Positions 2,008 through 53,353 of a DNA stretch of 64,000 nucleotides are shown piece after piece (position 1 is the first letter of the stretch; each line of letters opens with the position of its first letter). The stretch spans positions 57,779-121,778 of the forward strand of contig JBAZYF010000005.1 of the NCBI GenBank assembly GCA_041659505.1, written 5' to 3'. The notes below the pieces were generated by a model. It searched no databases, had not been told where the DNA came from, and saw only the letters and a list, made by a program, of their open reading frames with translations. The DNA is from Parcubacteria group bacterium (lineage in GTDB: Bacteria > Patescibacteriota > Minisyncoccia > Moranbacterales > UBA2206). A program made the translations under genes and the position numbers.

Positions 2008-2033
2008 CTTAGGATAAAAATTTTAGTTTCACG

Positions 2034-2645: not shown

Positions 2646-2801
2646 TGCTTTGTGAAAAATATGCAAAAGGGAAAAAGGTGAACGTGCCTGGTTCCCTTTT
2701 TTCTTTGGGAAAAAAAAGTTGCATAATATTTTGCTGGGTGTATGATAAAAAAATAACAACAAATGTGTCAGACAAACAATCTTTCAATAGGGAGGTAGAG
2801 A

Positions 2802-3004: not shown

Positions 3005-3036
3005 AAAATAGCAGAGTTGAAAGAGGGGGAGCGCAA

Positions 3037-3243: not shown

Positions 3244-3264
3244 ATGCGAAACGGGGAGGTTGAT

Positions 3265-3456: not shown

Positions 3457-3621
3457 ACTAGACAGCAGGGGGAGGACCACGATCCTTTCCCTGTTTTAAT
3501 TTTTCGAAAAAAGCTTTTCTTGGCTTGATTAAACCGGATCAGTGTGCTAGAGTCTTTGGAGAGCCTGAATCGAGGCTTTTTGTTTTTTCAATAACCATTG
3601 CGACTGCAAAGGAGGGGTGAT

Positions 3622-11276: not shown

Positions 11277-11397
11277 ATTAGGGTTCAGGATGACAGAGAA
11301 AATGCGGGAATGACAAGGAGAGTGGCGGGGTATCTTTCTAAGGTTTCTCGTCAAGATAGGAATAATAATGCGAGGTTTTTTGTTAAGGGTGAGGAAT

Positions 11398-20151: not shown

Positions 20152-20729
20152 AGATTTTTTTTGCCAAAAAGAACAGTGACGTAGAAATATTCTTTTTCCT
20201 CCTTGCTGATTTTTTCTGTCCCGATACCGATATCAAAAAAATTCTCTCCTAGGATATTTTCACGATGCGTCACGGATCCCATCCACGCAGACACGGTCTG
20301 GTCGGGGGAAGAGAAGTTGCGCGCCAGATTTTCTCCAGCGTACTTATAATCATAGCCGTTTTTCTCAATTGATCCCCAGACGAAATTTCCCTCGGGAGTC
20401 TGGTGGGAAAAATAATTCCGGCGGAGCATATCCTCCGTTTTTTGATTGGCTGCCATATTTAATTGGGCATTGATCGTCAGTGGAGGCAATTTTTTGGTAG
20501 ATCTCTCCTCATTAATACGTCGCACAATTTGCGCTTCAAAAGAGCTGAGCTGAGGTGCACTGGCACTGCTTGCGTTGGCTATTTTATTTTCTTCTCCGAG
20601 AATATGTACTGAGAGGATCTGCCACAACAAAAAAGCGCAGATTCCCAACAGGAGATATCGCGGAACGCTTTTTTTCAACATAAAAAGGCTCCGTGAAATC
20701 CGTTGAGCCCTATCTACAAAAAGGCGCAC
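20148..20729 (-). CDS. Secreted CAP/SCP/PR-1 superfamily protein (paralog of 64..957)
   Basis: Has NYFSHQTPEGNFVWGSIEKNGYDYKYAGENLARNF...WMGSVTHRENIL. N-terminal TM/signal YLLLGICAFLLWQILSVHILG. This is the only minus-strand gene in the window. Confidence 0.7.
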   Translation of the reverse strand: MRLFVDRAQRISRSLFMLKKSVPRYLLLGICAFLLWQILSVHILGEENKIANASSASAPQLSSFEAQIVRRINEERSTKKLPPLTINAQLNMAANQKTEDMLRRNYFSHQTPEGNFVWGSIEKNGYDYKYAGENLARNFSSPDQTVSAWMGSVTHRENILGENFFDIGIGTEKISKEEKEYFYVTVLFGKKNL

Positions 20730-21002
20730 TAAAAAAAGCGTCTTTTAGGTGATGAGCAAGTGACCGGTTACGCCACTGACTTCCCGTGGTTCAAGGCGTC
20801 CAAAATAAGGACCACGGTTCAACGTCTTCACTAACTCTAAAAATTAAAATCTTAGGTACTTGGTTCACATTATAGTTATTTTCCCTTTTCTGTCAATTTT
20901 TCCAGCGCCTAGACAAGTATTGGCTTGAAATAAGCTTATTTAGTGCTAGTATTTTTTAGACATTTTTCAAAAAAAAGAAATTTTTGGTCATTTTTCATCC
21001 GC

Positions 21003-40030: not shown

Positions 40031-40102
40031 AGCGGGATGGAGCAATGGCAGCTCGTCTGGCTCATAACCAGAAGGTTGTAGGTTCGAATCCTACTCCCGC
40101 AA
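40031..40102 (+). tRNA. tRNA with CAU anticodon (Met or Ile2-lysidine); position 1:72 appears unpaired
   Basis: Cloverleaf: anticodon loop CTCATAA, T-arm GTAGG-TTCGAAT-CCTAC, acceptor 3' strand TCCCGCA. Boundaries are +/-2 nt. Confidence 0.6.
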
Positions 40103-40185
40103 CATAGTAGTATTTGGTATCCTGACGTATCTGGCATTGTTTTTTTACTGCTAAATACAAATTACAAAATACCGGACACTGATGA

Positions 40186-40259
40186 GGCAGGGTAGCTCAG
40201 CCGGTTAGAGCGCAGCACTCATAACGCTGAGGTCGTGAGTTCGAGTCTCACCCCTGCTA
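40186..40259 (+). tRNA. tRNA with CAU anticodon (second copy; Met/fMet/Ile2 undetermined)
   Basis: GGCAGGGTAGCTCAGCCGGTTAGAGC D-arm, anticodon loop CTCATAA, T-arm GTGAG-TTCGAGT-CTCAC, acceptor CCCTGCT. Confidence 0.65.
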
Positions 40260-40363
40260 CAAAAAAAATTAAAATTAAAAAATCAAAGTGAAAAATTTAG
40301 GAAAATTGTCGCGAAGCGACTCCTTATTTTTTCATTTTGAGATTTGCATTTTACATTTGCAAC

Positions 40364-40437
40364 GGGGGCGTAGCTCAGTTGGTTAGAGCGACTGCCTGTC
40401 ACGCAGTAGGTCACCGGTTCGAGTCCGGCCGTCCCCG
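40364..40437 (+). tRNA. tRNA-Asp (GUC)
   Basis: GGGGGCGTAGCTCAGTTGGTTAGAGC, anticodon stem ACTGC/GCAGT with loop CTGTCAC, discriminator G73. Confidence 0.7.
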
Positions 40438-40618
40438 CAGTTGATTTAGTGGCTTAATTCAGGCCTCTTTTTCGATGGGGAAAACGGTGCCTCGAACATT
40501 ATTCCGATCTAGTTGACAAAATCGACTTTTCGCGGTAGAGTGTTAAATCAGAATATGACGGCACATTAACAACATTCAGCGCATATTTGCGCTTTTAGCT
40601 TATCTAGGGAGGGAGAAT

Positions 40619-41110
40619 ATGAACGCTGTGAAATTAAGAAGATTTTCCAAGTTTGGAGCGGTTTATTGCTTGGTTGTGGCGATAATATGGTCATTTGACT
40701 ATATCTATATGCCGTGGCTGGCAATTAAGTTCCAATACTTTGCGACTATTCCGCTTTTCTTTTCCATTTTGCTGGCTTGCTGGGGCGGATTATATCTATA
40801 TGATTTTTTTGATGAAGATGTTTTTTTTATCAGGAAGATTCGACCTTGGCTGGAAAGGAAAAGCTCATGGAAGTTAATCGAATGGACAAAGCGGATGATC
40901 CGCCAAAGTCCCAATGCGACTTTTGTTGCCATTTCGGCTTGGTGGAGTCCCTTGCATGCCTATCTTTTTTTCAGAATGGAAGGGGACAATTCTGCGGGGG
41001 CTTTGGTGAAAATTATTGAAGGATCAATCTATTGTGCCATTTTTTGGAGCATCGTGATTGATCTTATCGTTTTCATTTGGGAATATACAAAAATATGGCT
41101 TAAAATATAG
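40619..41110 (+). CDS. Hypothetical polytopic membrane protein
   Basis: Four hydrophobic segments. RBS gggagggagaatATG. Confidence 0.5.
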   Translation: MNAVKLRRFSKFGAVYCLVVAIIWSFDYIYMPWLAIKFQYFATIPLFFSILLACWGGLYLYDFFDEDVFFIRKIRPWLERKSSWKLIEWTKRMIRQSPNATFVAISAWWSPLHAYLFFRMEGDNSAGALVKIIEGSIYCAIFWSIVIDLIVFIWEYTKIWLKI

Positions 41111-41139
41111 CTGTGGCTTTCTGCCAAAAGGGGGTGATT

Positions 41140-42297
41140 ATGCAAGTATTCTTAACAGGTGCAACTGGGTTTTTGGGCGGAGAGCTTCTCGTATTACTCT
41201 CCAAGGATGAAAGGATCGATAAAATTTATTGCCTTGTAAGGGCGACCGATAGTATTGAAGCAGACAAGCGATTGGTAAGAGTTTTTGCTTTTCATGATGA
41301 TTATTTTGACCGAAAGAAAATAATTCCTATACCCGGTGATTTATCAAGGGAATTCTTGGTTGATCAGATGGAGGCAATGGAAGAATTGTGTGACGTGGAT
41401 ACGATTATCCATGCCGCCGCCGATACTTCATTTGCTCCCAGTCACAAAGACAATATTCAGCAAGTGAACATCATCGGGGCTAGTAATGTTGCCAAGTGGG
41501 CAGCCAGACTTCCTAATCTGAAAACTTTCGTGTATGTGGGAACTTCCTGGATATGCGGATGTGATAAGCCTCATCGCATTGTCCACGAAGATGAATCTCC
41601 GAACATTGAATACAGCCAGCTCGTTGAATACAGTCGCAGCAAATCGATTGGTGAAATCAATATTCGAAAAATGATTCCGGCGGATAAACTTCTAGTGGTG
41701 CGGCCATCCATTATTATGGGCGACAGCAGAGCTTGGGCGCCCAGATCGTTCGTCATCAGTTGGGCGATTGCGGCTTTCAATCTACTAAGGCTGGTTGCGA
41801 TGGATTCCGAAGCATTTTGCGACATAATTCCCATCGACTATGCCACTAAAGCGATTGCAGAGTTGCTTTTTTCTCAAAGGAGTTTCAATACCTATCACAT
41901 TTCATCCGGAGTAAATACATCCACTAATATGAATTTACTTTTGAATGCAATCGGTGCTGATGATAATCGACCAGGGTTTCATTTTGTGGATTACTCCTTA
42001 ATGAGACAGATGCAGCTTTTTTCCAAAAGGCAGTTAACGGACATGGCTGGTTTGAAAGATTGTTCCGAGTATTTGGCTTATTGGGGCAAAACATTCAATG
42101 GTGACAATGCTCTCCGCAGATTGCTCTGGGCAGTTAACTATTATTATCAGTTCGTAAACTTGAGTTTGGTTTTTGACAATACCAGACTACTCAAGGATAC
42201 AGACATCGGTTTCTCAGAGCCTGCTCATCGGTATATGGGAAGAAACAGGGAACAGCTCAGAAAGATTGACATTATTGGCGGATCGCTTGATCCATGA
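41140..42297 (+). CDS. NAD(P)-binding SDR-family reductase (thioester-reductase / fatty-acyl-CoA-reductase-like 'male sterility' domain)
   Basis: RBS aaagggggtgattATG. The Rossmann motif VFLTGATGFLGGELL, followed by YCLVRATD...ADKRL, resembles terminal reductase (R) domains. Confidence 0.6.
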   Translation: MQVFLTGATGFLGGELLVLLSKDERIDKIYCLVRATDSIEADKRLVRVFAFHDDYFDRKKIIPIPGDLSREFLVDQMEAMEELCDVDTIIHAAADTSFAPSHKDNIQQVNIIGASNVAKWAARLPNLKTFVYVGTSWICGCDKPHRIVHEDESPNIEYSQLVEYSRSKSIGEINIRKMIPADKLLVVRPSIIMGDSRAWAPRSFVISWAIAAFNLLRLVAMDSEAFCDIIPIDYATKAIAELLFSQRSFNTYHISSGVNTSTNMNLLLNAIGADDNRPGFHFVDYSLMRQMQLFSKRQLTDMAGLKDCSEYLAYWGKTFNGDNALRRLLWAVNYYYQFVNLSLVFDNTRLLKDTDIGFSEPAHRYMGRNREQLRKIDIIGGSLDP

Positions 42298-42424: not shown

Positions 42425-44125
42425 ATGTGCGATACAAGTGTTTTTTTGAAGTTAGGAATATATGCGAACTATATTTCTATTCCTCCGATAGTAGTTCTTT
42501 TGTTACTGGGATTATTAATTCTTTTTTCTGATTTTAAAAAGACAGCAAACAGAATTTATTTCATAATTTCCATTTTTTTGATTGTTTGGATAACTTCGGA
42601 TTTTTTGAGTTATAAACTTTCCAGCCCCGTAGGCGTTTTGTGGGCAGATAGAATATCTTCACTAGGGTTATTTGCAGGGGCATTCTTTGTCCTTTTTATT
42701 TATCTGTTTCCGGAGAAAGAAAAAATACCGAGAAAAATTTTGTATTATGTGTTTGTTCCGCTTTTACCTTTTTTCTTTTTAGTCCCAACGGATTTTTATG
42801 AAACGATTGGCCCCGCGCCTAGCTGTGATACTTTAGCTGGGCCAGCGTATATAATAATGGCAGCCATTCTTTTGTATGACATTATTTTGGGGATCTTCTT
42901 TTCTGTTAAAAAAATTAAGCTCTTGGACGAAAATCAAAAAAAGCAGTTTAAAATATTTGCCACAGGGTCTCTGCTTATGATATTTCTGGGCGGAATGATA
43001 GATGTGGTGCCGTCTATCTTTGATAATGCAACTATAGTGCTTTTCACTCCCTATTCCTCACTTGTATTTGCCTTATTTGGAGCCTATGCCATGGTTAAAT
43101 ATAAAGCGTTAAATGCAAAAGTTCTCGCTGCTCAAATGCTAGTAGTATCTTTGATAATCCTAATAGGTTCGCAATTATTTTTTATAACTAATCCGATCAA
43201 TCGCGGTATAACAATAATCACTTTATTTATTGCTACAGTTTTTGGTTGGTGGCTGGTAAATTCAGTTAAAAAAGAGGTCAAGCAAAAAGAAGCCCTGGAG
43301 TTTGCCAATGAAGAATTGAAGCGGATGGATCAAGTCAAAAACGAGTTCATCAATATCGCCTCGCATCAGTTGCGCACCCCCGTCACTGTCATTAAAGGCA
43401 CAATCGCAATGCTGATCGATGGGACGATGGATTCTTTTGATGCCGAGACCAAAAAGAAATTTTATGCTGGCGCTCAATTCAAGTGCAAGAAGCTGGAGGA
43501 TATTATAAATGACATCCTAAGTGCTACTGCGCTGACAAACAAAAAGTTCAACGCCATGGATACGGAAGTGGAAAAAATTAACCTCAGGGAATTTTTTGAC
43601 AAGATGATTGACGGCTTCAAGCCAGAAACAATGGAGCGGGAGATCGAATTGTCCCTGGGAAAGTTAGATAAATCTACACCGGATATTTTTGGACAAAAAC
43701 AATACCTGGAGGAAGTTTTTTCTAATTTAATTACCAATGCTATCAAATACACACCTTCTCCCAAAATGACTCCGGATATTCGGGATAAGAGAGCCGGGAA
43801 AGCAATTATTAAAATCAACAGTCGCAAAGAAGGGGAAAATATTATTTTTTCTGTCAAAGACAATGGTATCGGTATTCCCGTCGAAGCCATCCCGAATTTA
43901 TTTCAAAAATTCGTGCGAGCAAAAAACGCTGTGGATATGTATACTGACGGAACAGGACTCGGGCTATTTATTATCAGAGAAATTGTCGAAGGTCACGGCG
44001 GAAAAGTTTGGGTAAAATCCCAATTAGGCAAAGGCTCGGAATTTTTTGTGCAACTGCCAATCAAGCCTGTCGGCAAAGTAGATATTAAGGAATATATCAA
44101 AGAGAGAGCGGAAATTAAAATGTAA
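42425..44125 (+). CDS. Sensor histidine kinase with ~8-TM N-terminal sensor domain
   Basis: Multi-TM N-terminal half. H-box IASHQLRTPVTVIKG. HATPase_c region FSNLITNAIKYTP...VKDNGIGIP...GTGLGLFIIREIVEGHGGKVWV. Confidence 0.75.
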   Translation: MCDTSVFLKLGIYANYISIPPIVVLLLLGLLILFSDFKKTANRIYFIISIFLIVWITSDFLSYKLSSPVGVLWADRISSLGLFAGAFFVLFIYLFPEKEKIPRKILYYVFVPLLPFFFLVPTDFYETIGPAPSCDTLAGPAYIIMAAILLYDIILGIFFSVKKIKLLDENQKKQFKIFATGSLLMIFLGGMIDVVPSIFDNATIVLFTPYSSLVFALFGAYAMVKYKALNAKVLAAQMLVVSLIILIGSQLFFITNPINRGITIITLFIATVFGWWLVNSVKKEVKQKEALEFANEELKRMDQVKNEFINIASHQLRTPVTVIKGTIAMLIDGTMDSFDAETKKKFYAGAQFKCKKLEDIINDILSATALTNKKFNAMDTEVEKINLREFFDKMIDGFKPETMEREIELSLGKLDKSTPDIFGQKQYLEEVFSNLITNAIKYTPSPKMTPDIRDKRAGKAIIKINSRKEGENIIFSVKDNGIGIPVEAIPNLFQKFVRAKNAVDMYTDGTGLGLFIIREIVEGHGGKVWVKSQLGKGSEFFVQLPIKPVGKVDIKEYIKERAEIKM

Positions 44126-44141
44126 TTTTTAGCCAAAGCGT

Positions 44142-44534
44142 ATGATTAATAATAAGATTAAAGTTCTATTTGTTGAAGATGATCCGGAACAAGTGTTTCT
44201 TTTTAGTAAAGTTTTTGACATCAAAGGTCTTCTTACTATGCCGGCCACTACGAGTGAGGAGGTTTTTAAAGTAATTTCTTGGGATAGGCCGGACATTGTG
44301 CTTTTGGATGTGATGCTCCGCAATGAAAACGGATTGGATATTATGGAAAAACTAAGGAATGATTCCCGCGTGAAAGGCGTGCCAATTTTTGTTTTTACTA
44401 ATACTGACAAAAAAGAATACAAAGATCGAGCGGAAAAACTGGGAGCGGAGGATTATATTATCAAAGCCAATACTACTCCGCAGGAAATGGTGGAGCGGAT
44501 AAAGAGGTTTGTGAAAGATGGGGGTGTTATCTGA
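44142..44534 (+). CDS. Single-domain response regulator (cognate to the upstream kinase)
   Basis: KVLFVEDDPEQ...IVLLDVMLRNENGLDIM...IFVFTNTD...GAEDYIIK. Confidence 0.8.
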   Translation: MINNKIKVLFVEDDPEQVFLFSKVFDIKGLLTMPATTSEEVFKVISWDRPDIVLLDVMLRNENGLDIMEKLRNDSRVKGVPIFVFTNTDKKEYKDRAEKLGAEDYIIKANTTPQEMVERIKRFVKDGGVI

Positions 44535-44630: not shown

Positions 44631-44867
44631 AAATATTAATTTTTATGGTGGCTGTTAATATGTGGAAAGGAATTGCACTTCAAAATGGAATTTAAGGATA
44701 CGATTAAGGATACGATTATTGACAAAAAGGAGCATTTCATGTTAGTATGATTTGATTTTGAATGTAAGCTTGCTTATTAAAAAGGGAAGGTTGATTGTGC
44801 GAAAATTATTAAGCGAGATTGGTTAATTGAATTATTTTCAATTTATTTTTCCCCAAGCTGGTATATT

Positions 44868-45845
44868 ATGAAGAGCAAAAAAAGTTTAGACTGGGAAGAG
44901 GAAGAAATAGGATCATATTTGAGCTCTACTGGCATAATAAAAGGGTGCTGTTTTGTTTTTAAAATAGACAGGGGGATTGAAAGCAAAAACTACATCATCA
45001 GTGTTGGAAACAGGAGCAATTATAAATATCTATTGAAGATTTATTCAGAAAATAGTTATGGAGAAATCTTATATGAAATAGAGATTTTAAATAAATTAAA
45101 CTCTTGTTTTGAGAAAAAATTTTTCCCGATTATTTCTAAGGAAGTATTCTTTATTGATAAAAAACCAAGTATTCTTTTGAAATATATCAAGGGTAATATT
45201 CTTTCAAAGAAAGAAATCTCTCCCAGTCTTGTTAGGAAGATAGCTAAAAAACAAGCAAGCATGCATCTTTCCCTTGCTGACTTTAGGCCTAAGCATAAGA
45301 GAACAAGACTTTCAATTTATAATTTTAGTTTTGCTGATTTTAATTTGGGCAACATCAATGACTCGCGTAAAAAAATATTGCAAAAAGAAGTTGGCGAGCT
45401 TAAGCAAGAAATTTGTCTATTTGAAAAAATAAAATTTAGAAAATCCATTATACATGAAGATTTGAGCATGGAAAATATAATTTTGACTAAAAATGACGGA
45501 GTTAGTTTTATTGATTTTGGCGAGTCTCACTATGCTGAAATGATTAGTGATGTAGCGATAGCAATAAAAGAAATAATTATAAGAAACAAGGGAGTCGATT
45601 TTGGTTTGATGAGGGATTATTTGGATTCATATCGGAAAACTATCAGTCTAGCTAAAGAAGAAGTGGGAGCTTTACTATTTTTATTAAAAAGACGGACAGC
45701 ATTTATGCTGGCTTATCTTTTGAATAAGCAAGGGCTGGATAATGAAATTGAATTTACGAAAAAGATTGATGAAGAAATTCGAATGTTGAAATTATTGCGT
45801 AAGAATAGCCAGCTTATAAAAAATTTTATCAAAAACTATGAGTAA
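44868..45845 (+). CDS. APH/ChoK-family small-molecule kinase (phosphotransferase enzyme family)
   Basis: Catalytic-loop motif IIHEDLSMENIIL, followed by the Mg-binding FIDFGES. Protein-kinase-like fold of the aminoglycoside/choline/homoserine kinase type. Confidence 0.6.
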   Translation: MKSKKSLDWEEEEIGSYLSSTGIIKGCCFVFKIDRGIESKNYIISVGNRSNYKYLLKIYSENSYGEILYEIEILNKLNSCFEKKFFPIISKEVFFIDKKPSILLKYIKGNILSKKEISPSLVRKIAKKQASMHLSLADFRPKHKRTRLSIYNFSFADFNLGNINDSRKKILQKEVGELKQEICLFEKIKFRKSIIHEDLSMENIILTKNDGVSFIDFGESHYAEMISDVAIAIKEIIIRNKGVDFGLMRDYLDSYRKTISLAKEEVGALLFLLKRRTAFMLAYLLNKQGLDNEIEFTKKIDEEIRMLKLLRKNSQLIKNFIKNYE

Positions 45846-46851
45846 AACAAGAGGTTTGATTTTAGGAAAGTTTGCGCCATTTCATGTGGGACATGAGCGC
45901 CTCATAGAGACTGCCCTAAAAGAGGTTGATGACCTTTGTGTCATTGTGTATGATTGTCCTAATTTGACTAATATACCATTAAATGTGAGAGCTAATTGGA
46001 TTCGTCAATTTTTTCCTCAAGTTTTTGTTATTGAAGGATGGGACGCTCCAAATAAACATGATGATACTGTTGAGGTAAAAAAAATGCAGGAGAATTATGT
46101 CCAAAAAGCGCTTAATGGAAAAAAAATTACCCACTTTTTTTCTTCTGAATATTACGGTGAACACATGAGTAAATTTTTGGGAGCTGTTGATAGGAGGCTT
46201 GACAGGCACGATCCTAGACAGGGCTATCTTACGACCGCTACAATGATAAGAAATGGAAATAATTTGAGTAAACATTTTTTGAGCGCGGTCGTGTATGGGG
46301 ACATGCTAATTAAGGTTGCATTCGTTGGTGTTCCATCCCAAGAGCAATCAAAATTAGTAAGTTATCTTGCTAAAAAGTTGCATACGTCATACATAGAAGA
46401 TAATATGCTAATGTCGCTTGGAGTAAAGCAAGACAAGGATAATAAACACAAAAAAATTATTCCCGATTTTTATAAAATTGCCAATAAAAAATATGAACTT
46501 GCGAATAGGGAATCTAATATATTTTCTGCAAAAGAATATCTGGTTTATAATTCAACAGGGTTTGTTGATCATTTATTGTCGGTAGCTACGCATGGCCGAT
46601 TTAACAAGAAAATGTACGATCTTTTTTCTGAGGACATGAGTAGTTATGACTTGGTTCTTGTAAATAATAACCCCAAAAAAAGTATTGGTAAATCGCTGGA
46701 TATTGATGATTCAATCTTTCTCAATCAATTGATTGCAAACCTCGATACAATAAATGTCAATTATCGATTACTGTCGGGAACATTTAGGGAAAAGTTAGCA
46801 ATTTCTGAAAAATTAATAAATGCAGTTAATAAAAAATTTAATTTAAAATAA
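45838..46851 (+). CDS. NadR-type nucleotidyltransferase (NMN adenylyltransferase-like HxGH domain) with a degenerate C-terminal P-loop kinase domain
   Basis: GKFAPFHVGHERLIETALKEVDDLCVIV closely parallels the E. coli NadR NMNAT motif GKFYPLHTGHIYLIQRA..VDELHIIM. At the C-terminal Walker-A position the sequence is GVPSQEQSKL. Confidence 0.55.
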   Translation: MSKTRGLILGKFAPFHVGHERLIETALKEVDDLCVIVYDCPNLTNIPLNVRANWIRQFFPQVFVIEGWDAPNKHDDTVEVKKMQENYVQKALNGKKITHFFSSEYYGEHMSKFLGAVDRRLDRHDPRQGYLTTATMIRNGNNLSKHFLSAVVYGDMLIKVAFVGVPSQEQSKLVSYLAKKLHTSYIEDNMLMSLGVKQDKDNKHKKIIPDFYKIANKKYELANRESNIFSAKEYLVYNSTGFVDHLLSVATHGRFNKKMYDLFSEDMSSYDLVLVNNNPKKSIGKSLDIDDSIFLNQLIANLDTINVNYRLLSGTFREKLAISEKLINAVNKKFNLK

Positions 46852-46852
46852 T

Positions 46853-48058
46853 ATGAATTATTTAGCCGGCAATACAAATTCACCTATTCCAATACCATCG
46901 CATTATCCGAGTGACATTGTGGGCGGAAATGGCCCATATGTTGTAAATAAGGGAGGTGATAAGTATATCGACTTGTGGATGGGTTATGGAGCGCTTCTTT
47001 TTGGACATGCAGACCAGGAGATAGTAGAAATAATCAAGAGTAATATAAGCAATGGCTGGTTTTTTTCTTACCAAACATTACTAGAGAAAGAGTTATCCGA
47101 AATTATACACAACATAATTCCAAGCGCCGAAAAGATTAGATTCGCAACGACCGGATCGGATGCGGTTGCATATGCGATAAGAGCATCAAGAGCGTATACG
47201 GGTAGAAAAAAAATCTTATCTATAGTTGGAGGCTACCATGGTGTCCACGAACAAATGATACCAAGCGATGGGACGATCGGTGAATCAGGTCTAGACCTAG
47301 TTCCATTTAACGATATTGATGCCGTTGAGGAAAAATTAAAAGATAATGAATATGCGTGTTTTTTGCTTGAGCCGATTCTGGCGAATTCTGGTTGTACACC
47401 GCCAAAAGAAGACTATCTTAATAGGGTGCGACAAGCTTGTGATAAGACTGGAACTATTTTGATTTTTGATGAGATTGTTACTGGATTTCGAATTAGTATT
47501 CATGGTGCGCAAGGATTTTTTAATGTAACTCCTGACATATCTTTATTTTCTAAGGCGATTGCTAGCGGATTTCCTCTCTCTGTTATATGTGGAAAAGAAA
47601 AGATAATGGAAACCTTTATTCCGACGGGCACTGTTTTTTTTGCTGGTACTTTCAATGGAAATCCCTTGTCGCTGATTGTTGCTAGAACGGTAATAGGAAA
47701 ATTGCAAAATGGTAATATGCATAAAAAAAGTAAAGAAATTGGTGATGATTTAAGAAAATATATAACAGAGCAAATGGATAGTTTGAATATACCTGGATGC
47801 GTTCAGGGAATATTATCCATGCTAACTGTGGCGTTTGGTTGTAGTAGTTTTAAGCAAGGCATTAAATTGGAGCGCTGTGATGTTGGAGCTTATGGCTTTT
47901 TTATTGAAGAGATGGCTAAAAGAAGAGTCTTATTGCCTCCTCTACAAACTGAAACAATTTTTTTGTCTCCAGTTCATGAGTGTGTATTGGGTGAAATAAA
48001 AATCGCTATAAAACAGTCCCTCGAAGAAATGAAAAAAATTTATTATAAGAATGCATAA
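46853..48058 (+). CDS. Class III PLP-dependent aminotransferase (glutamate-1-semialdehyde aminomutase-like)
   Basis: GGYHGVHE...ILIFDEIVTGFRISIHGAQGFFNVTPDISLFSKAIASGFP, with the PLP lysine in the SKAIA context. Confidence 0.75.
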   Translation: MNYLAGNTNSPIPIPSHYPSDIVGGNGPYVVNKGGDKYIDLWMGYGALLFGHADQEIVEIIKSNISNGWFFSYQTLLEKELSEIIHNIIPSAEKIRFATTGSDAVAYAIRASRAYTGRKKILSIVGGYHGVHEQMIPSDGTIGESGLDLVPFNDIDAVEEKLKDNEYACFLLEPILANSGCTPPKEDYLNRVRQACDKTGTILIFDEIVTGFRISIHGAQGFFNVTPDISLFSKAIASGFPLSVICGKEKIMETFIPTGTVFFAGTFNGNPLSLIVARTVIGKLQNGNMHKKSKEIGDDLRKYITEQMDSLNIPGCVQGILSMLTVAFGCSSFKQGIKLERCDVGAYGFFIEEMAKRRVLLPPLQTETIFLSPVHECVLGEIKIAIKQSLEEMKKIYYKNA

Positions 48059-48079
48059 CAATTTTTAAATATTAACATT

Positions 48080-49315
48080 ATGAAGAAAAAAGATCTGCAA
48101 TTAAAGCTTCTGAATGAGACTCTGCGGGTAGCTAGAAAATCAGCTTTTTATAAAGACAAGCTTCTTAAATATCCAAAGAAAATAAATGATGTTGCTCGGT
48201 TAGCAGAATTTCCATTCACAACAAAAAAAGAATTGAGGGAATGCTATCCCTTTGGCACGCTGGCGGTACCAGTTAGTGATGTTATTGAGCTACATACTAG
48301 TTCTGGCACGACAGGAAAAGCTACGCTGTCTTTTTATACTAAAGAGGATTTAAAAAATGGATCAAAAGCAATCGCGCAGGCCTGGAAGTGTTTTGGGGTG
48401 AATGAGAATAGCCGCGTGCAATTTATGATGAGTTATGGGCTATTTAGTGGTGCAACTCTCAATACCTATGCGATTCAAGAGCTTGGCGGGTTAGTGATAC
48501 CTGCCAGTATCCAATCAGCCGAAAAGCAAATACAAATGATGTTAGATTTTAAAACGGATACTATCGTTGGAACGGTGGGTTATTACTTTTACCTTCTGGA
48601 TTATTTGAATGAAAATAAAATTTCACTTGAACAGTTTTCTCTTAAGCGCGGTATAATGGCTGGCGAAATATATTCTGATAAAATCCGGGAGGAGATTGAG
48701 CGTAAATTTAATATAAAAATATTTGATCACTATGGATTATGTGAAGTCAATACCGGCATAGCATATGAATGTGATTTTAGGACGGGACTACATATTTTAG
48801 ATGAGTATGTTTTGCCGGAAATTATTGATCCGGAGAGTGGTGAGGTTTTGCCTATGGATAGCGAGGGCGAGCTGGTGCTCACTACATTAAAAAAGAATGC
48901 GTCGCCACTAATACGGTATCGTACCGGCGATATTACGTCGATAAAATCAGGCAAATGTCCTTGTGGTAGGAATTCTGTTCGAATAGATAGGATAAAGAGA
49001 AGGGTCGATGATCTCTTGTTTATCAAGGGAATAAAGGTTGATCCATATGAGCTAAAAGATCACATTTTTGAAATTGCGAGCGAGTATATTTATGGTGATA
49101 TAAAAATAAAAATACGGAATGATTTTAAAAATTATAGGCCAGAAATATTAGTTAGTTTAAAGGAGTTATCTAATGTAACCATTTTAAATTTTATAAAAAA
49201 ATCATTAAAGGAAAAAACATTACTGAGTTTTGATATTAAGCATGTTGACCGCGATTATTTTCAAAGGGGGTCAAATAATAAAGTTAAATTTGTCGAATAT
49301 ATTGACAAGGGGTAA
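48080..49315 (+). CDS. Adenylate-forming enzyme of the PaaK / F390-synthetase / LuxE clan
   Basis: FPFTTKKELR...ELHTSSGTTGKATLSFYTKEDL is the PaaK-type P-loop (SSGTTGKP). C-terminal subdomain follows. Confidence 0.7.
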   Translation: MKKKDLQLKLLNETLRVARKSAFYKDKLLKYPKKINDVARLAEFPFTTKKELRECYPFGTLAVPVSDVIELHTSSGTTGKATLSFYTKEDLKNGSKAIAQAWKCFGVNENSRVQFMMSYGLFSGATLNTYAIQELGGLVIPASIQSAEKQIQMMLDFKTDTIVGTVGYYFYLLDYLNENKISLEQFSLKRGIMAGEIYSDKIREEIERKFNIKIFDHYGLCEVNTGIAYECDFRTGLHILDEYVLPEIIDPESGEVLPMDSEGELVLTTLKKNASPLIRYRTGDITSIKSGKCPCGRNSVRIDRIKRRVDDLLFIKGIKVDPYELKDHIFEIASEYIYGDIKIKIRNDFKNYRPEILVSLKELSNVTILNFIKKSLKEKTLLSFDIKHVDRDYFQRGSNNKVKFVEYIDKG

Positions 49316-49324
49316 TTTTATACT

Positions 49325-50524
49325 ATGAGCAATTATAAAATTAAAGATAAAAAAGCCATCAGGGGAATTATACGGGAGCTGATAGGAATTCTTAAGAAAA
49401 ATAAGAAAGATCTTTTTGCTTTAAATAAGATATGCACGCAAGATGCTCTGTGTTGGATAAAAGAAGATTGGGAAAACGTTATTGATTATTTGAAAAACTA
49501 TGAAAGAAATAATGAAAAAAATTTTTCAAAAAAAATAAAACCAAAGGGATCCGTTTTGATAATTCTTTCATATAATGAACCGTTGTTATTATCAATAATA
49601 CCAATATTGAATGCTTTGATTGGTGGCAATAGCGTAAAGCTTAAACCTAGCAGGAAGGCACGAGAAATTATTAAAAAAATCTGGCTAGATTCCGGTATAA
49701 TATTGAAATATAATTTAGATTTAGTGATCTTATTCGACGTTGCTCCTCAGTTGGTTGGACAGCAAATCAAACTGGTCAATGCGGTTTATTTTTTTGGGGG
49801 ACATGATGTTGCTAGAGAGATATCGAAATTATGTGCAGATAATTTTGTTGAATTTTTTCCAGAAATTGAAACGGCTGATTGTAAGGTGTTAAATATGAAA
49901 AGCAGAAAAGACTTTAATCTGGAGCGAGATATTTCGTTAACCTTGCGTGAGTCTTTTTCTCACGCCGGACAGATCTGTCATAGGATCCAGGGGGTTGTCA
50001 TAGTGGGTAGTTTATATCATCAATATGTTGACTCATTGAAAAAGCAATTCTTAGTATTGGGCGGTAGCAACTCGCAATGTTTTACTGAAGATTATAAAAT
50101 AGATAGGGATTATTTAAAAAAGGCTATATGTGATATTGAAGATGCTCATCCGGAAGAATTGATTTGTAGCAACGAGGAGATTGGTATACCACTGTTAGTA
50201 GTTTCGCCAGAAAAAGATTGCGAATTTGTCAAAAAAGCATATTTTTTACCTATACTTTGGGTTATTGGTTTTAATTCTGAAAAAGAATTATTGACCTTTT
50301 TAAATTCTAGAAAATATTACCTAGGATTAAATATTTTTAGTGATGACAATGCGTTTGTGGAGTTTATTATTGGGAGTACAAAATTTAGCCGTTATACAAT
50401 TAATACAGCGCATACTAAAATAAGATCTTATGAGGGCTGGGGAGGTGTTTGGCCAAGTGGTTATGGCGGATATAAAAGTTGGCTTGAACATTTTACTAAT
50501 CCCTATACTATTGTGCGAAAATAA
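49325..50524 (+). CDS. Aldehyde-dehydrogenase-superfamily reductase (LuxC acyl-CoA-reductase-like)
   Basis: ALDH-like landmarks: SVLIILSYNEPLLLS, GGNSVKLKPS, a candidate catalytic Cys in HAGQICHRIQGVV, and NEEIGIPLLVV. It is paired with the LuxE-clan ligase. Confidence 0.5.
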   Translation: MSNYKIKDKKAIRGIIRELIGILKKNKKDLFALNKICTQDALCWIKEDWENVIDYLKNYERNNEKNFSKKIKPKGSVLIILSYNEPLLLSIIPILNALIGGNSVKLKPSRKAREIIKKIWLDSGIILKYNLDLVILFDVAPQLVGQQIKLVNAVYFFGGHDVAREISKLCADNFVEFFPEIETADCKVLNMKSRKDFNLERDISLTLRESFSHAGQICHRIQGVVIVGSLYHQYVDSLKKQFLVLGGSNSQCFTEDYKIDRDYLKKAICDIEDAHPEELICSNEEIGIPLLVVSPEKDCEFVKKAYFLPILWVIGFNSEKELLTFLNSRKYYLGLNIFSDDNAFVEFIIGSTKFSRYTINTAHTKIRSYEGWGGVWPSGYGGYKSWLEHFTNPYTIVRK

Positions 50525-50758
50525 TTTTTTTACTTAATATTACTCGGCTATTTATTGAAATAGATATCCGAGTTAGCCTTAAGTAGTGGTTAATTGTTTT
50601 CTTGGTTAGACGAGTTCTTTTAAAAACTATTGCAATTGATAGGTGGGCAGTGTACATTGCCTGGTCTTGTTTCTCGAAATAGCTTATTTTGACATCATTG
50701 TCTTTTATCGATATACTAGCTATTGTAAACTTATTACATTAAACCTTGGAGGGAACAA

Positions 50759-51976
50759 ATGAAAGAAACTAAACTAGTATTAGAAGAATCCCGAGTGGAT
50801 GGAATTCTTAATCGGGGCGTAATCGTTGAAGTTCTGCCAACTAAGAAAGAATTTCGTGAGCGTCTTCTCAGTGGAGACAAAATGAAATTCTACATTGGTG
50901 CCGATCCTACATCAACCTCACTTCATCTTAGCCATGCTAAAAATTACATGCTTTTAGAAGATTTTCGCCGTCTTGGCCACGAGGTAATAGTGTTATTCGG
51001 CGATTTCACTGCTAGAATCGGTGATCCAACGGATCGTGCTACAGCAAGAAAGCAGCTTACGCGTGAAGAGGTCTTGGCTAATGTGCAAGACTGGATAAAT
51101 CAAATCCGGCCACTTATGGATTTTGATGCCAAAGAAAATCCTCCACGTATAGTTTACAACCATGATTGGTTGTCTAAGTTAACAATGGAGGATGTGGTTA
51201 ATCTGGCTTCAAATATGACCGTTCAACGTATGTTAGAGCGCGATATGTTTGAGAAAAGAATGAGGGAAGAGAAGCCGATTTTTCTCCACGAATTCATGTA
51301 CCCGCTTATGCAGGGCTTTGACAGTGTAGCTTTGGAAGTTGATGTAGAGCTTTGTGGCACGGATCAGACTTTTAATGCGTTAGTTGGAAGGACTTTGCTT
51401 AAGAAGCTCAAAGGTAAGGATAAATTTGTGGTAGCTGTGCATTTAATGGAAAACCCTGTCACGGGAGAGTTGATGTCTAAGAGTCGCGGTACCGGCGTGT
51501 TCTTAAATTCAACACCGTTTGATATGTATGGCTCAATTATGGCTCAGTCCGATGAAATGACGCAGCATTTCCTTATTTGCAATACCAGGATTCCGTTAGA
51601 TGAAGTAAAAAAAATACTTCAAGCTAAAAATCCTCGTGACGCAAAAATGATTGCTGCCTATGAAGTTACAAAGGTATTTCATGGCGAGGATGCTACTAAG
51701 GAAGCACAAGACAAATTTATCCGATTAGTTCAAAAAAAAGAATTTGCAGAAGACGTGCCCGAGGTTGTCATTACCAACCCCTCTATAGGCTTGTTTGATC
51801 TTCTACGCAAAGGTCTTAATGATGACTATAGCAACACAAAAATTCGTCAGTTAATAAGGCAAAAATCTGTGAAAATTAATGGCGAAGTTGTGGATGTTCC
51901 CGATGAAATCATACATTTAAGCGGAGCAGTTAATGTCCGTGTTGGTAAAAAAGTGTGGTTTAAAGTTGTTCGATAA
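50759..51976 (+). CDS. tyrS: Tyrosyl-tRNA synthetase
   Basis: YIGADPTSTSLHLSHA (HIGH region), GDFTARIGDPTDR, KMSKS as ELMSKSRGTG, and a C-terminal S4-like domain. Confidence 0.85.
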   Translation: MKETKLVLEESRVDGILNRGVIVEVLPTKKEFRERLLSGDKMKFYIGADPTSTSLHLSHAKNYMLLEDFRRLGHEVIVLFGDFTARIGDPTDRATARKQLTREEVLANVQDWINQIRPLMDFDAKENPPRIVYNHDWLSKLTMEDVVNLASNMTVQRMLERDMFEKRMREEKPIFLHEFMYPLMQGFDSVALEVDVELCGTDQTFNALVGRTLLKKLKGKDKFVVAVHLMENPVTGELMSKSRGTGVFLNSTPFDMYGSIMAQSDEMTQHFLICNTRIPLDEVKKILQAKNPRDAKMIAAYEVTKVFHGEDATKEAQDKFIRLVQKKEFAEDVPEVVITNPSIGLFDLLRKGLNDDYSNTKIRQLIRQKSVKINGEVVDVPDEIIHLSGAVNVRVGKKVWFKVVR

Positions 51977-52321
51977 GTTGTTTGAATATGGATGATTCGA
52001 TGGCTCAGTTTCTTTATCAGAAGCTGAGCCTATTTTTTACAAAAATTTATATTATTTATTTGCGCAAGCATAGTTTGGTAGGTTGGTCTTATTCAAGAGA
52101 AAGATATATGCTATACTAAAAACATTGGAAAGAAAATCATCTATATTGGCTTGAAGAGAACCCCCTTTATTTGCTAGAAAGATTATTCACTAAAAAGATA
52201 AAGAATAACATTCAGCATCTTAAGCTTGAATATTTTGCCGACAGAGAGGGGTTCTCTCGCGTTCCAACGCAGAGTCGTTAGAACGCCTCTTTCTTAAATT
52301 GTTATTGTAATAAAAAACAGT

Positions 52322-53353
52322 ATGTTACCACAAAAACTAAATCCAGGCGACACCGTCGTAATTGTTTCTCCGTCTTGGGGTGGGCCAAGTGTTTTTCCGC
52401 ATGTCTATGAAAATGGACTTAAAATTTTAACAGAGTGGGGACTGAAAATTAAAGAATATCCGACAGCGAGGGCTGATGCGGGATATCTTCGGAAAAATCC
52501 AGAGGTTCGTGCAAAAGATATTAACAACGCTTTTTCTGATCCGGAAGTAAAAGCTATTTTTACCTCAATTGGCGGTGATGATTCGGTTAGAATTTTGCCT
52601 TATCTCAATAAAGAAACTATCAAAAATAATCCCAAAATACTCATGGGTTTCTCTGATACGACAACGCTTCATGCATTTTGTAATCAATTGGGGTTGGTCA
52701 CTTTCTATGGACCATCAATTATGGCGGGGTTTTCTCAGATGAAAAATTTACCGGAAAGTTTTGAATGCCATGTCAGGGAGATGTTATTTGAATCGAAAGA
52801 TGATTATGAGTATATTCCCTATGGAGAATATGCCGAAGGCTATTTTGGCTGGTCAGATAAGAATATTGTCGGTAAAACTAAGGAGCTTAAGAAAGAAAAT
52901 GATGGCTGGAAATTCCTGCAAGGCTCAGGCATTATTCGGGGAGAATTGTTTGGTGGTTGCATCGAAGTTTTGGAAATGATGAAGGGAACGGAATTTTGGC
53001 CACAGCCAGAATTTTGGAATGGCAAAATTTTAGTATTAGAAACATCTGAAGATAAACCGACATATTCTCAGGTTGGTTGGATGCTTTTAAATTATGGCAT
53101 GCAAGGTATATTTGATCGAATCGGTGGTATTGTTATAGGAAGAGCACGAGATTATTCTGCGGAAGAAAAATTAGAGTTGGAGAAAAAAATTATTTCAGTT
53201 GTCAGAGATGAATTTGGTCGAGCAGACCTATCAATTATTGCTAATATGGATTTTGGCCATACTGATCCGCAATTTGTTTTACCATTGGGAGCAAAAGCGG
53301 AAATCGATTGTGATAATAAGAAGTTTAAAATAGTCGAACCTTGCTTGAAGTAG
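52322..53353 (+). CDS. LD-carboxypeptidase (peptidase S66; LdcA/MccF-like)
   Basis: VVIVSPSWGG...IKAIFTSIGGDDSVRILPYL...LMGFSDTTTLH (nucleophile Ser), with a downstream His/Glu region. Confidence 0.8.
   Translation: MLPQKLNPGDTVVIVSPSWGGPSVFPHVYENGLKILTEWGLKIKEYPTARADAGYLRKNPEVRAKDINNAFSDPEVKAIFTSIGGDDSVRILPYLNKETIKNNPKILMGFSDTTTLHAFCNQLGLVTFYGPSIMAGFSQMKNLPESFECHVREMLFESKDDYEYIPYGEYAEGYFGWSDKNIVGKTKELKKENDGWKFLQGSGIIRGELFGGCIEVLEMMKGTEFWPQPEFWNGKILVLETSEDKPTYSQVGWMLLNYGMQGIFDRIGGIVIGRARDYSAEEKLELEKKIISVVRDEFGRADLSIIANMDFGHTDPQFVLPLGAKAEIDCDNKKFKIVEPCLK

Follow-up and report, generated by a model that had tools for sequence, protein, structure and literature searches.

A five-gene enzyme cassette linked to the tyrosyl-tRNA synthetase gene in CPR bacteria, possibly for a tyrosine-related nucleotide conjugate

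The window, that is, the whole 64 kb stretch of DNA analysed here, comes from a contig of Parcubacteria (CPR). It contains five co-directional, tightly spaced open reading frames, all on the forward strand, which encode, in this order, an APH/choline-kinase-fold kinase (K, 44868-45845), a NadR-derived adenylyltransferase (N, 45838-46851), a HemL-derived aminotransferase (A, 46853-48058), a PaaK-clan ligase (L, 48080-49315) and a short, divergent aldehyde dehydrogenase (ALDH) homolog (D, 49325-50524). The first two genes overlap by 8 nt, and the subsequent junctions are gaps of 1, 21 and 9 nt. An earlier note on this DNA had described the same genes in the same order, and both the coordinates and the gene content hold. 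The catalytic motifs are intact and conserved in all five enzymes, apart from the apparently dead C-terminal kinase domain of N. The GC3 of the operon is 0.28-0.33 (0.29 for the K gene) vs 0.44-0.47 in the housekeeping neighbours, so that the operon is compositionally foreign and looks horizontally acquired. A promoter-like site (TTGACA-18-TAGTAT, with TG) is located 5' of the operon at 44719-44748, and a weak terminator-like hairpin 3' of D at 50644-50663, both on the forward strand and both pattern matches only; the promoter consensus scan yields no more matches in the region than expected from shuffled sequence.

Upstream of the operon, as the earlier note had it, Pfam and NCBIfam matches identify a thioester-reductase SDR (41113-42297) and, on the forward strand at 42425-44534, a histidine kinase (42425-44125) followed by a single-domain response regulator (44142-44534). 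We compared the window with 53 related loci (numbered L004, L010 and so on), among which all those with a taxonomic label belong to CPR. The SDR shows no conserved association with the cluster. Homologs of the histidine kinase adjoin the cassette in L004/L046, L014/L028, L023 and L032-L035, and those of the response regulator in L025 and L047; the two are recurrent, although not universal, neighbours and possible regulators of the operon.

The kinase K (325 aa) matches PF01636 (3.6e-14) and retains the HxDxxxxN Brenner motif (IIHEDLSMEN) and the DFG metal-binding motif (IDFGES), which together place it in the APH/choline-kinase fold, as originally proposed. Its best NCBIfam match is the type-II homoserine kinase, at 80 bits against a cutoff of 271, and the profile of the K family best matches, in this order, type-II homoserine kinase 2ppq (8e-15), amicoumacin kinase and LicA choline kinase. 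The nucleotidyltransferase N (337 aa) matches PF01467 and TIGR01526 (1.3e-18), and can be aligned over its full length, with 35-39% identity, to NadR-type proteins that possess an intact AAA domain, but scores far below the NadR cutoffs (67.4 vs 341 bits for TIGR01526 and 35.7 vs 201 bits for NF005988). The HxGH signature and the second motif, SATMIRN, are kept, and the Walker A motif is degenerate (GVPSQEQS vs GTESSGKT), as had been noticed before. The same pattern holds for the entire family: all 16 members retain HxGH and ISSTxIR (ISSTxxR in the comparison with NadR), and all 16 carry GxPSxExx, without the Lys-Ser/Thr, in place of Walker A; the RNK-like C-terminal domain is, to judge by these residues, catalytically dead. 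Unlike NadR, N lacks the HTH domain, and its gene belongs to a different operon; in L061, a relative consists of the NMNAT domain alone. Given the level of identity to genuine NadR proteins, N may be nothing more than an NMN adenylyltransferase.

The class-III PLP aminotransferase A (401 aa; PF00202, 1.2e-52) finds its best match in hemL (TIGR00713), at 312.4 bits, under the equivalog cutoff of 527.3, and shares 32-37% identity with true HemL; it represents a sister family of HemL, in keeping with its first description as a protein resembling GSA aminomutase. The PLP-binding Lys234 is conserved, and the equivalent of Glu406 is kept as well. The family has NSPIP where HemL has Ser29-Pro30-Val31-Arg32, with Pro in the position of Arg32, and a deletion has removed about 13 residues from the gating loop and its surroundings. 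The roles of the HemL residues, including that of Arg32 in carboxylate binding, have been described (PMC7338781). Because A lacks both Arg32 and these gating-loop residues, aminomutase activity and binding of a carboxylated substrate are both unlikely. An A homolog with 47% identity adjoins an NRPS-like A-T protein and a thioester reductase in L062. We also considered a catabolic triad of amino-alcohol kinase, PLP phospho-lyase and ALDH, as in the aminopropanol pathway of the Rhodococcus/Mycobacterium (RMM) microcompartment or in AGPHD1/AGXT2L. A does not fall into the phospho-lyase subgroup: every top match of A is HemL/GSAM, and PRK06148/9, which model kinase-aminotransferase fusions, hit K but not A.

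The ligase L (411 aa) contains SSGTTGK, YGxxE (YGLCE), RYRTGD and the C-terminal Lys401, all conserved across 33 members of the family, which correspond to the P-loop, YGxTE motif, RxGD hinge and catalytic Lys of the ANL superfamily of adenylate-forming enzymes. It matches PDB 4r1l at 7.6e-72, and in the Pfam scan only PF00501 (AMP-binding) was obtained, with no match to PF04443 (LuxE) at E<=0.01. The dehydrogenase D (399 aa; PF00171, 1.9e-27) is a member of the ALDH superfamily by its catalytic residues and fold. Its Cys218, Glu182 and Asn84, the equivalents of Cys302, Glu268 and Asn169 of ALDHs, are fully or almost fully conserved; compared with ALDHs, D is truncated by 60-90 residues at its N-terminus and has lost the Glu399 equivalent. 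The AF2 model (pLDDT 87.8) shows a generic ALDH fold with Foldseek TM scores of 0.7-0.8 to many ALDHs, the best matches being ordinary aldehyde-oxidising enzymes (aminoaldehyde and betaine-aldehyde dehydrogenases), and there is no ProA-specific or acylating-enzyme signal. No match of D to PF05893 (LuxC) was detected at E<=0.01, PF00171 being the only hit; some family members and second-tier relatives show weak LuxC matches of 31-44 bits, always below their own Aldedh match. Thus, the earlier description of L and D as PaaK/LuxE-type and LuxC-like stands as regards the PaaK clan and the ALDH superfamily, but not as regards LuxE or LuxC.

Phenylacetate catabolism, with L as PaaK and D as a PaaZ-like aldehyde dehydrogenase, comes to mind, as the closest named relatives of L are PaaK enzymes. 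However, L scores only 278.9 bits against a cutoff of 646.3 with TIGR02155 and 283.2 against 700 with NF041878; D has no MaoC domain and forms an isolated family, with some 108 members at 37% identity or more followed by a drop to 22%, a gap that an exhaustive search reproduced, and the family was found here only in CPR-type genomes. The 10 kb to either side of the cassette contain none of paaABCDE, F, G, H, I, J or Z, whether in the window or in any related locus. This gene content rules out the pathway, which we regard as having next to no chance of being correct. The earlier note had named nearby paa genes and lack of conservation of the cluster as the two findings that would overturn it; with paa genes absent and the cluster conserved as a unit in many genomes, far beyond chance, neither objection applies.

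In the 53 related loci, the invariant core consists of L and D, which are always adjacent and usually overlap. The five-gene order is kept across CPR lineages whose TyrRS share only 29-36% identity, and among the genomes found here the cassette family is confined to the CPR type. Elsewhere, K-N-A is swapped for a Pol-beta nucleotidyltransferase (motif G[ST]x9-10SDxD) and an Fe-ADH, or for other nucleotide-handling genes. The slot directly 5' of L is occupied by A in type I loci and by Fe-ADH in type II, both aldehyde-processing enzymes, and every well-sampled locus type includes a nucleotide enzyme: K with N, the Pol-beta nucleotidyltransferase, an MntA-like nucleotidyltransferase, or HisG, SLOG and PRT-like genes (L012). 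Transposases or an integrase are present in L010, L018, L050 and L063 and, together with the GC3 contrast, are signs of mobility. Neither this modular replacement nor the tyrS linkage described below figured in the earlier note.

That note had proposed that the cassette makes an aminated, nucleotide-activated small molecule, with surface decoration as an example of its use, and had likened K and N to LicA/LicC. Spelled out, K and N would convert an aminated alcohol, in the style of the Kennedy pathway or LicA/LicC, to an NDP-activated donor destined for the cell surface. The succession of an APH/choline-kinase-fold kinase and an HxGH nucleotidyltransferase does recall these systems: K resembles choline and homoserine kinases, its counterpart in L010 matches PF01633, and the HxGH family (PF01467) includes CCT, ECT and TagD. 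Some neighbours would also be compatible with a surface function, namely, an LD-carboxypeptidase encoded 3' of tyrS in the window and 3' of D in L004/L046, and a PlsC-type acyltransferase with a HAD hydrolase 3' of D in L014, L023 and L028. Nevertheless, N derives from NadR rather than from the CCT, ECT or LicC type, the sister cassettes replace the pair by a Pol-beta nucleotidyltransferase that needs no kinase, and the conserved neighbours of the cluster across the 53 loci include no LicD-type, CDP-alcohol, glycosyl- or phosphotransferase, nor any flippase or exporter. Furthermore, from any substrate other than a hydroxy acid, L, D and A would yield an amine and not an alcohol, and the linkage to tyrS is left unexplained. 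We consider this proposal unlikely, and surface decoration unsupported.

Downstream of D, the window encodes a tyrosyl-tRNA synthetase (tyrS, 50759-51976, forward strand; TIGR00234, 315 bits vs a cutoff of 113.8), the only TyrRS in the 64 kb, with canonical Tyr-pocket residues and the HLSH and LMSKS motifs. In 38 of the 53 related loci, a tyrS gene lies at most 4 kb away from L-D, and among the loci with at least 3 kb on both flanks it is missing from a single one, L018, in which the N gene is frameshifted and a transposase adjoins. The placement varies: tyrS may precede or follow the cluster, face it convergently or divergently, or lie within it (L013, L026 and L064). The linkage is near-universal, and tyrS is a conserved partner gene of the cassette. 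Two full-length TyrRS genes are present in L050 and in L061, where a canonical TyrRS and a divergent one with a Gln173-to-Met replacement flank the cluster, and truncated TyrRS-like paralogs are found in other loci, with TyrRS-like catalytic paralogs in L012 and L063.

One could argue that this adjacency is functionally meaningless, resulting from inherited synteny or an insertion hot-spot, and that the five genes comprise an unrelated small-molecule pathway. In the window, tyrS looks like a transcription unit of its own, with a promoter-like site (TTGACA-17-TATACT, 50689-50717, an 11/12 match, pattern only) and a strong terminator-like hairpin (52002-52030, a 12-bp stem followed by a T-run), both on the forward strand; its GC3 is intermediate, and the TyrRS tree resembles deep organismal lineages. 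Yet tyrS stays with the cassette despite changes of side and strand and insertion inside the cluster, and does so across different accessory modules and lineages with entirely different flanking genes. Against it also stand the single tyrS-less locus among those with at least 3 kb on both flanks and the duplicated synthetases and TyrRS-like paralogs inside cassettes. We find this explanation highly improbable.

Taken together, these observations bring us to the reading that we favour, with a probability of roughly 40%, namely, that the L-D core, tied to tyrS and equipped with a nucleotide-handling module, makes a tyrosine-related nucleotide conjugate partnered with TyrRS; on this reading, the product of the cassette would be a nucleotide-tagged, tyrosine-related compound. 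Under this scheme, L would adenylate a hydrophobic, probably aromatic, tyrosine-related carboxylate, and D would accept the activated acyl group on its catalytic Cys and reduce it to the aldehyde, following LuxE/LuxC-type or ProB/ProA-type logic. A, descended from HemL but lacking the Arg that binds the carboxylate as well as some of the lid, would transaminate the aldehyde to a primary amine; K would phosphorylate a hydroxyl of the molecule, and N, the NMNAT domain of a dead-kinase NadR, would add AMP. The pathway would then end in an aromatic amine conjugated to a nucleotide, not in an activated donor. TyrRS would be either the target of this compound, with immunity or compensation encoded at the same place, or the source of activated tyrosine. 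The scheme is weakest at the K and N steps, because the amine formed by A would offer K a hydroxyl only if the substrate already carried one. Against it also count the single TyrRS of the window, with its canonical active site, and the fact that the TyrRS and cluster phylogenies are only weakly correlated (rho 0.23-0.28).

Conversion of acid to aldehyde to amine, the route suggested in the earlier note, is the best-supported reading of the L, D and A steps, given the loss of Arg32 and part of the gating loop in A and the A homolog next to an A-T protein and a thioester reductase. Similar logic applies to NRPS-like A-T-R carboxylate reductases coupled to omega-transaminases in alkaloid-type clusters, whereas the window employs a PaaK-type ligase and an ALDH, without a carrier protein. 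The pairing of an enzyme that forms an adenylate or acyl phosphate with a Cys enzyme of the ALDH superfamily, as in LuxE/LuxC and ProB/ProA, could convert a carboxylate to an aldehyde independently of CoA, but unlike LuxE/LuxC, L and D miss the respective Pfam models, D keeps the hydrolytic Glu and a generic fold, the cassette includes no LuxD or luciferase, and here we only infer the reductive direction. An aminoacyl-tRNA synthetase gene beside reductase-like and HemL-like enzymes also recalls the C5 pathway (GluRS, GluTR and HemL), from which the cassette differs in that the reductase candidate is an ALDH rather than GluTR, the synthetase is TyrRS, and A lacks the HemL features listed above.

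The interpretation in the earlier note is, overall, partly supported. The full hydrolytic-ALDH triad and generic fold of D fit the opposite route as well: D and L could lead from aldehyde to acid to acyl-adenylate. The corresponding pathway would be oxidative salvage or catabolism, starting from an arylalkyl amine or alcohol, for example, tyramine or tyrosol, that A (type I) or Fe-ADH (type II) turns into an aldehyde. D would oxidise this aldehyde to an acid such as 4-hydroxyphenylacetate, from which L would make the acyl-adenylate or CoA thioester; K and N would be a separate pair for NAD salvage (nicotinamide riboside to NMN to NAD), with K replacing the dead RNK domain and the NAD feeding D. 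The presence of tyrS would reflect a tyrosine-derived substrate family, much as lactic acid bacteria have tyrS-tdc operons for tyramine. The affinity of L to phenylacetate-CoA ligases, the best fold matches of D, the full-length similarity of N to NadR and the Walker A motif dead throughout the N family beside a separate kinase gene all agree with such a pathway, and alternative feeders onto one aldehyde are typical of peripheral catabolism. It leaves unexplained, however, the Pol-beta nucleotidyltransferase that replaces K and N in type II and the HisG, SLOG and PRT genes of L012, and does not account for the TyrRS duplications or the TyrRS-like paralogs; genes that would use an aryl-CoA further along the pathway (paa, IOR) are absent from every locus, and A-family homologs pair with the carboxylate-reducing A-T and R system. 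On balance, we rate oxidative salvage as doubtful, albeit worthy of some weight.

For a nucleotide conjugate partnered with TyrRS, a parallel may be drawn with the clusters for aminoacyl-tRNA synthetase inhibitors that include an immunity synthetase, such as agrocin 84/LeuRS, mupirocin/IleRS, albomycin/SerRS and indolmycin/TrpRS. The cassette enzymes are unrelated to those of these clusters, and in most loci, the window included, there is only one TyrRS, whose active-site residues are canonical. The common features are the linkage of a small-molecule cassette to the gene of one specific synthetase, the nucleotide chemistry and signs of mobility, and the second, in one case divergent, TyrRS copy in some loci. 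The clade with the Gln173-to-Met replacement is a candidate for a resistant synthetase, as a lead only.

The five genes of the cassette lie on the plus strand of the window and encode, in order, an APH-fold kinase (K, 44868-45845; PF01636, 3.6e-14), an HxGH nucleotidyltransferase for which the best model is the NadR NMNAT domain (N, 45838-46851; TIGR01526, 1.3e-18), a class-III aminotransferase to which hemL is closest (A, 46853-48058; 312 bits), an AMP-binding enzyme to which PaaK is closest (L, 48080-49315; about 280 bits) and an aldehyde dehydrogenase (D, 49325-50524; PF00171, 1.9e-27). K and N overlap by 8 nt, and the subsequent gaps are 1, 21 and 9 nt. The positions that the earlier note assigned to these genes are exact, and its families for K, N and A agree with the profile searches. 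Its LuxE/LuxC-like pair stands to the extent that L is an AMP-binding, PaaK-like enzyme and D an ALDH; the Pfam LuxE and LuxC models miss both proteins. In the profile searches, none of the five proteins reaches the curated cutoff of a named equivalog.

The characteristic motifs are conserved in each family: HxDxxxxN and DFG in K, the PLP lysine in A, SSGTTGK, YGxxE, RYRTGD and a C-terminal lysine in L, and the Cys/Glu/Asn triad in D. The N protein of the window, which lies on a metagenomic contig of 127 kb, has a 100% identical match annotated in a Parcubacteria-group MAG. N is 35-39% identical to intact NadR-type proteins and, when aligned to a solved one, keeps GKFAPFHVGH and SATMIRN, but has GVPSQEQS in place of GTESSGKT, the degenerate C-terminal P-loop that had been noticed earlier. 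This holds for the entire N family, in which the adenylyltransferase motifs are retained and the kinase P-loop is gone in every member, a loss of RNK-specific features. The K family profile, compared with solved structures, matches type-II homoserine kinase best, followed by amicoumacin kinase and the LicA choline kinase; these matches came only with the family profile, and a single-sequence phmmer search of the PDB with K gave none. A pairing of the kinase with a phospho-lyase was dropped because A is HemL-like and not AGXT2L-like.

All neighbourhoods of N homologs at 37-60% identity show the K-N-A-L-D order, which bears out the treatment of the five genes as a conserved unit. A tRNA-synt_1b gene adjoins every such neighbourhood with enough flank, and all these genes pass the TyrRS equivalog model; this linkage to tyrS is a feature absent from the earlier note. 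Alignment-based searches with D yielded further loci, 12 from GTDB representative genomes and 37 from metagenome contigs, which were annotated with purpose-built family HMMs. All labelled loci belong to CPR bacteria (Moran-, Taylor-, Blackburn- and Woesebacteria, Parcubacteria, and bins labelled Saccharibacteria), and L and D are adjacent in every annotated locus. The tyrS gene lies at most 4 kb away in 38 of the 53 loci scored; 14 tyrS-less loci have less than 3 kb of flank on at least one side, and most of these end at a contig end. In L018, the sole tyrS-less locus with at least 3 kb on both flanks, the N gene is frameshifted and K adjoins a transposase gene. The arrangement varies: in L004, tyrS is upstream of K and overlaps it; in the window, it follows the cluster on the same strand; in L008, L009 and L020 it is downstream and convergent, in L010 upstream and divergent, and in L013, L026 and L064 it lies within the cluster. 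The remaining flanking genes differ entirely from lineage to lineage, and between lineages TyrRS is only 29-36% identical, A 56-73% and L 51-74%. The synteny signal is strong and, for minimal genomes, unexpected.

K-N-A is found in only part of the cassette family. In the 11 type II loci (L015, L016, L019, L022, L030, L032, L034, L037, L040, L049, L050), the usually overlapping genes follow the order tyrS, a protein of 258 aa, an Fe-ADH-family protein of 347 aa, L and D. The 258-aa family carries the Pol-beta nucleotidyltransferase (NTase) signature G[ST]-x9-10-SD[IL]D, and its profile matches MNT and DrrA in the PDB, only marginally. Other variants combine an MntA-like NTase, a HOA-aldolase-like protein, a D-2-hydroxyacid dehydrogenase, a remnant of A, L, D and tyrS (L017 type); tyrS, GTP cyclohydrolase II, an NTase, an M20 deacylase, an APH kinase, L and D (L023); HisG, a SLOG/LOG-like protein, a PRT-like protein, L, D, a TrpRS/TyrRS-like paralog of 349 aa in which the motifs read HVGT and KMGKS, and tyrS (L012); or D, A, a 2OG-oxygenase-like protein, a TyrRS-like paralog of the archaeal type (334 aa), an ATP-grasp-like ligase and a full TyrRS, adjoining an integrase and a resolvase (L063). 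In L047, 2.3 kb separate L-D-tyrS from K-N-A. The constants that emerge from this comparison are therefore L and D (in L063, D and A with the ATP-grasp ligase), a TyrRS gene and some nucleotide-handling enzyme. In the TyrRS tree, type I (K-N-A-L-D) and type II cassettes are intermixed inside the same clades, which implies exchange of modules in place beside tyrS.

No transferase or exporter family recurs among the locus neighbours, and the idea of surface decoration put forward in the earlier note loses ground, no transferase being conserved with the cluster. Catabolism of the paa type is excluded, since paa genes are present in no locus, and tyrosine synthesis by reductive carboxylation was dropped, since IOR is likewise present in none; salvage of CoA, FAD or cobalamin fits the enzyme set poorly and would leave tyrS without explanation. 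Among the side observations, two type I cassettes are preceded by radical SAM and SPASM genes (L014, 1046-2164; L031, 172-3103). The variant cassette of L063 (1-8700) appears to be carried by an integrative element; alongside it are the resolvase, a phage-type integrase, and an OLD-family nuclease and UvrD-like helicase pair that resembles Gabija.

The five cassette genes of the window have GC3 values of 0.28-0.33, compared with 0.44-0.47 in the nearby housekeeping genes ligA, gatA and gyrB; tyrS has 0.365 and the downstream LD-carboxypeptidase gene 0.31. In 4 of the 6 first-round loci, the cluster likewise exceeds its flanks in AT content, and both contrasts fit horizontal acquisition. In several candidate phyla, a conserved, compositionally foreign, modular cassette stays tied to a single essential gene of translation, which suggests that a small-molecule function connected with tyrosine activation is under selection, possibly serving host-cell interaction or self-regulation of translation.

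The TyrRS genes themselves are variable in number and form. L050 contains two tandem full-length TyrRS genes (674-3566) that are 43% identical to each other, one 67% identical to the TyrRS of a type I locus and the other 75% to that of a type II locus. In L061, on a 279-kb contig (6686-15112), a canonical TyrRS, a HIT gene, K, N (here the NMNAT domain only, 168 aa), A, L and D are followed by a second TyrRS of 472 aa, so that the cassette is flanked by two TyrRS genes, both of which pass the equivalog cutoff. This downstream copy belongs to a divergent clade, together with the TyrRS of L010, L020, L051 and L052 (454-525 aa), that is characterized by an extended N-terminus, about 7 inserted residues before KMSKS and a Met at the equivalent of Gln173 in the YPLLQGYD motif, the residue that in Bacillus TyrRS binds the alpha-amino group of tyrosine. 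In the TyrRS of the window, the Tyr, Gln and Asp residues are canonical, and the signature motifs take the variant forms HLSH and LMSKS. Related genes for HIT-family (HxHxHxx) hydrolases, enzymes that cleave adenylates and phosphoramidates, are located beside tyrS or the cassette in three lineages: L009 (15391-15873, minus strand), L061 (7995-8495, minus strand) and L048 (1979-2338, plus strand).

The A family comprises about 85 members at 40% identity or more, and its next relatives, at 32-37%, are true HemL proteins. In the Synechococcus aminomutase (GSAM), the diamino intermediate is hydrogen-bonded by Ser29 and Arg32, and the site is closed by a gating loop, residues 149-183 (PMC7338781). 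The A family has NSPIP where HemL has NSPVR and is shorter by about 13 residues in the gating-loop region; the equivalent of Glu406 is retained along with the PLP lysine. Because of the substitution and the deletion, A is unlikely to be a glutamate-semialdehyde aminomutase and, to judge from these residues, more likely transaminates a non-carboxylated aldehyde. In L062, an A homolog that is 47% identical and has the same features adjoins an NRPS-like A-T protein and a thioester reductase, a pairing with acid-to-aldehyde-to-amine logic.

D is isolated among the ALDHs. The family has about 108 members at 37% identity or more, the next relatives falling to 22%, and an exhaustive search of 1.84 billion representatives gives only 35 matches at 1e-30, with scores of about 195 bits separated from a next tier of unnamed ALDHs at 100-128 bits. 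The AF2 model (pLDDT 87.8) aligns with ordinary ALDHs at TM 0.7-0.8 in a Foldseek search of the PDB, in which this predicted structure retrieves generic ALDHs only, without a match that would point to ProA, LuxC or acylating enzymes in particular. D may catalyse either reduction of an activated acyl group or aldehyde oxidation. In the oxidative direction, an amine or alcohol, for example tyramine or tyrosol, would be converted via the aldehyde to an acid and further to an acyl-adenylate or CoA thioester, and K and N would form a nicotinamide-riboside/NMN salvage pair. This main alternative, which accounts well for D and N but leaves the Pol-beta NTase, the HisG/SLOG variants and the duplicated TyrRS genes without explanation, is in our judgement rather unlikely.

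We favour a reductive route to a nucleotide conjugate that interacts with TyrRS, a model to which, as a whole, we assign a probability of about 0.4. Under this reductive model, L would adenylate a hydrophobic carboxylate of the tyrosine family, and D would reduce it to the aldehyde, from which A would produce an amine or, in type II, the Fe-ADH an alcohol. K and N would then add phosphate and AMP, a step that the Pol-beta NTase would perform directly in type II, and the resulting conjugate would be the end product that interacts with TyrRS. The appeal of the reductive model is that the type II pathway, starting from tyrosine, would yield tyrosinol adenylate, a classical synthetic inhibitor of TyrRS; it is weakest at the acceptor hydroxyl that K requires in type I and at D, which looks hydrolytic.

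A more specific proposal, which we regard as improbable, is that CPR bacteria carry mobile, diversifying cassettes for a tyrosyl-adenylate mimic, in which an activated carboxylate of the tyrosine type would be reduced and then nucleotidylated to an aminoalkyl or hydroxyalkyl adenylate. The linked TyrRS would serve as immunity copy or target copy, or would itself be the activating enzyme; in the latter case, TyrRS, ALDH and the HemL-like protein would be an analogue of the GluRS-GluTR-HemL route. If true, the product would be the first aminoacyl-adenylate analogue from nature that is directed at TyrRS, and the pathway the first for an aaRS-linked specialised metabolite in ultra-small episymbiotic bacteria. 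CPR bacteria (Patescibacteria) have minimal genomes and are thought to be almost devoid of specialised metabolism. Each cassette enzyme falls in a known superfamily, and the concept of linking an aaRS gene with a small-molecule cluster is established; what is new is a modular, uncharacterised, tyrS-anchored cassette, seen here only in CPR-type genomes, and no description of this cluster or of a TyrRS-linked pathway in CPR bacteria was found in the literature searched. The cassette also brings together three enzyme repurposings, namely a NadR in which the kinase domain is dead, a HemL relative that lacks the carboxylate-binding Arg and part of the lid, and an isolated short ALDH clade, in a small, concrete gene set for heterologous reconstitution.

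In the window, promoter-like sites precede K (44719-44748) and tyrS (50689-50717), D is followed by a weak hairpin, and tyrS by a strong terminator-like hairpin (52002-52030), all of them pattern matches only. On these matches, the operon and tyrS look like neighbouring but separate units; elsewhere, in L004 and the type II loci, the genes overlap. Rfam searches at gathering and E-value thresholds and a tRNA scan find no riboswitch, T-box or tRNA in 44.3-52.4 kb, so that the region has neither a tRNA of its own nor a leader that can be recognised. Homologs of the histidine kinase and single-domain response regulator at 42425-44534 of the window recur beside otherwise different cassettes (L004, L014, L023, L025, L028, L032-L035, L047) and may regulate them. 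A defence system was considered and rejected, PADLOC having yielded generic kinase noise only.

Three tRNA genes (Met, Met, Asp; 40031-40438, plus strand) lie just upstream of a 40.6-54 kb stretch that holds a 163-aa ORF, an SDR, the kinase/regulator pair, the cassette, tyrS and LdcA, and could be an island boundary. The SDR, a stand-alone protein of the thioester-reductase type (41113-42297, plus strand; PF07993, 5.7e-38; TIGR01746), overlaps the end of the unannotated 163-aa ORF (40619-41110) and has a host-like GC3 of 0.44; no homolog was found near the cassette in any other locus type. The LD-carboxypeptidase (Peptidase_S66) gene follows tyrS in the window (52322-53353, plus strand) and D in L004 (14820-15806) and L046, and was found beside the cassette in no other locus type.

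Elsewhere in the window, a c-di-GMP-II riboswitch (20753-20838, minus strand; 60.2 bits, above the gathering score) is located directly upstream of the only minus-strand gene of the area (20148-20729), the product of which is a CAP/SCP-domain protein of 193 aa; in a Parcubacteria genome, c-di-GMP sensing may merit attention. Immediately beside this riboswitch-controlled gene are two genes for giant surface-type proteins of 938 and 1707 aa (11368-14184 and 14216-19339, plus strand), with matches to DUF11, SdrD_B, SpaA and LPXTG-anchor models, followed by a sortase gene (19516-20151, plus strand).
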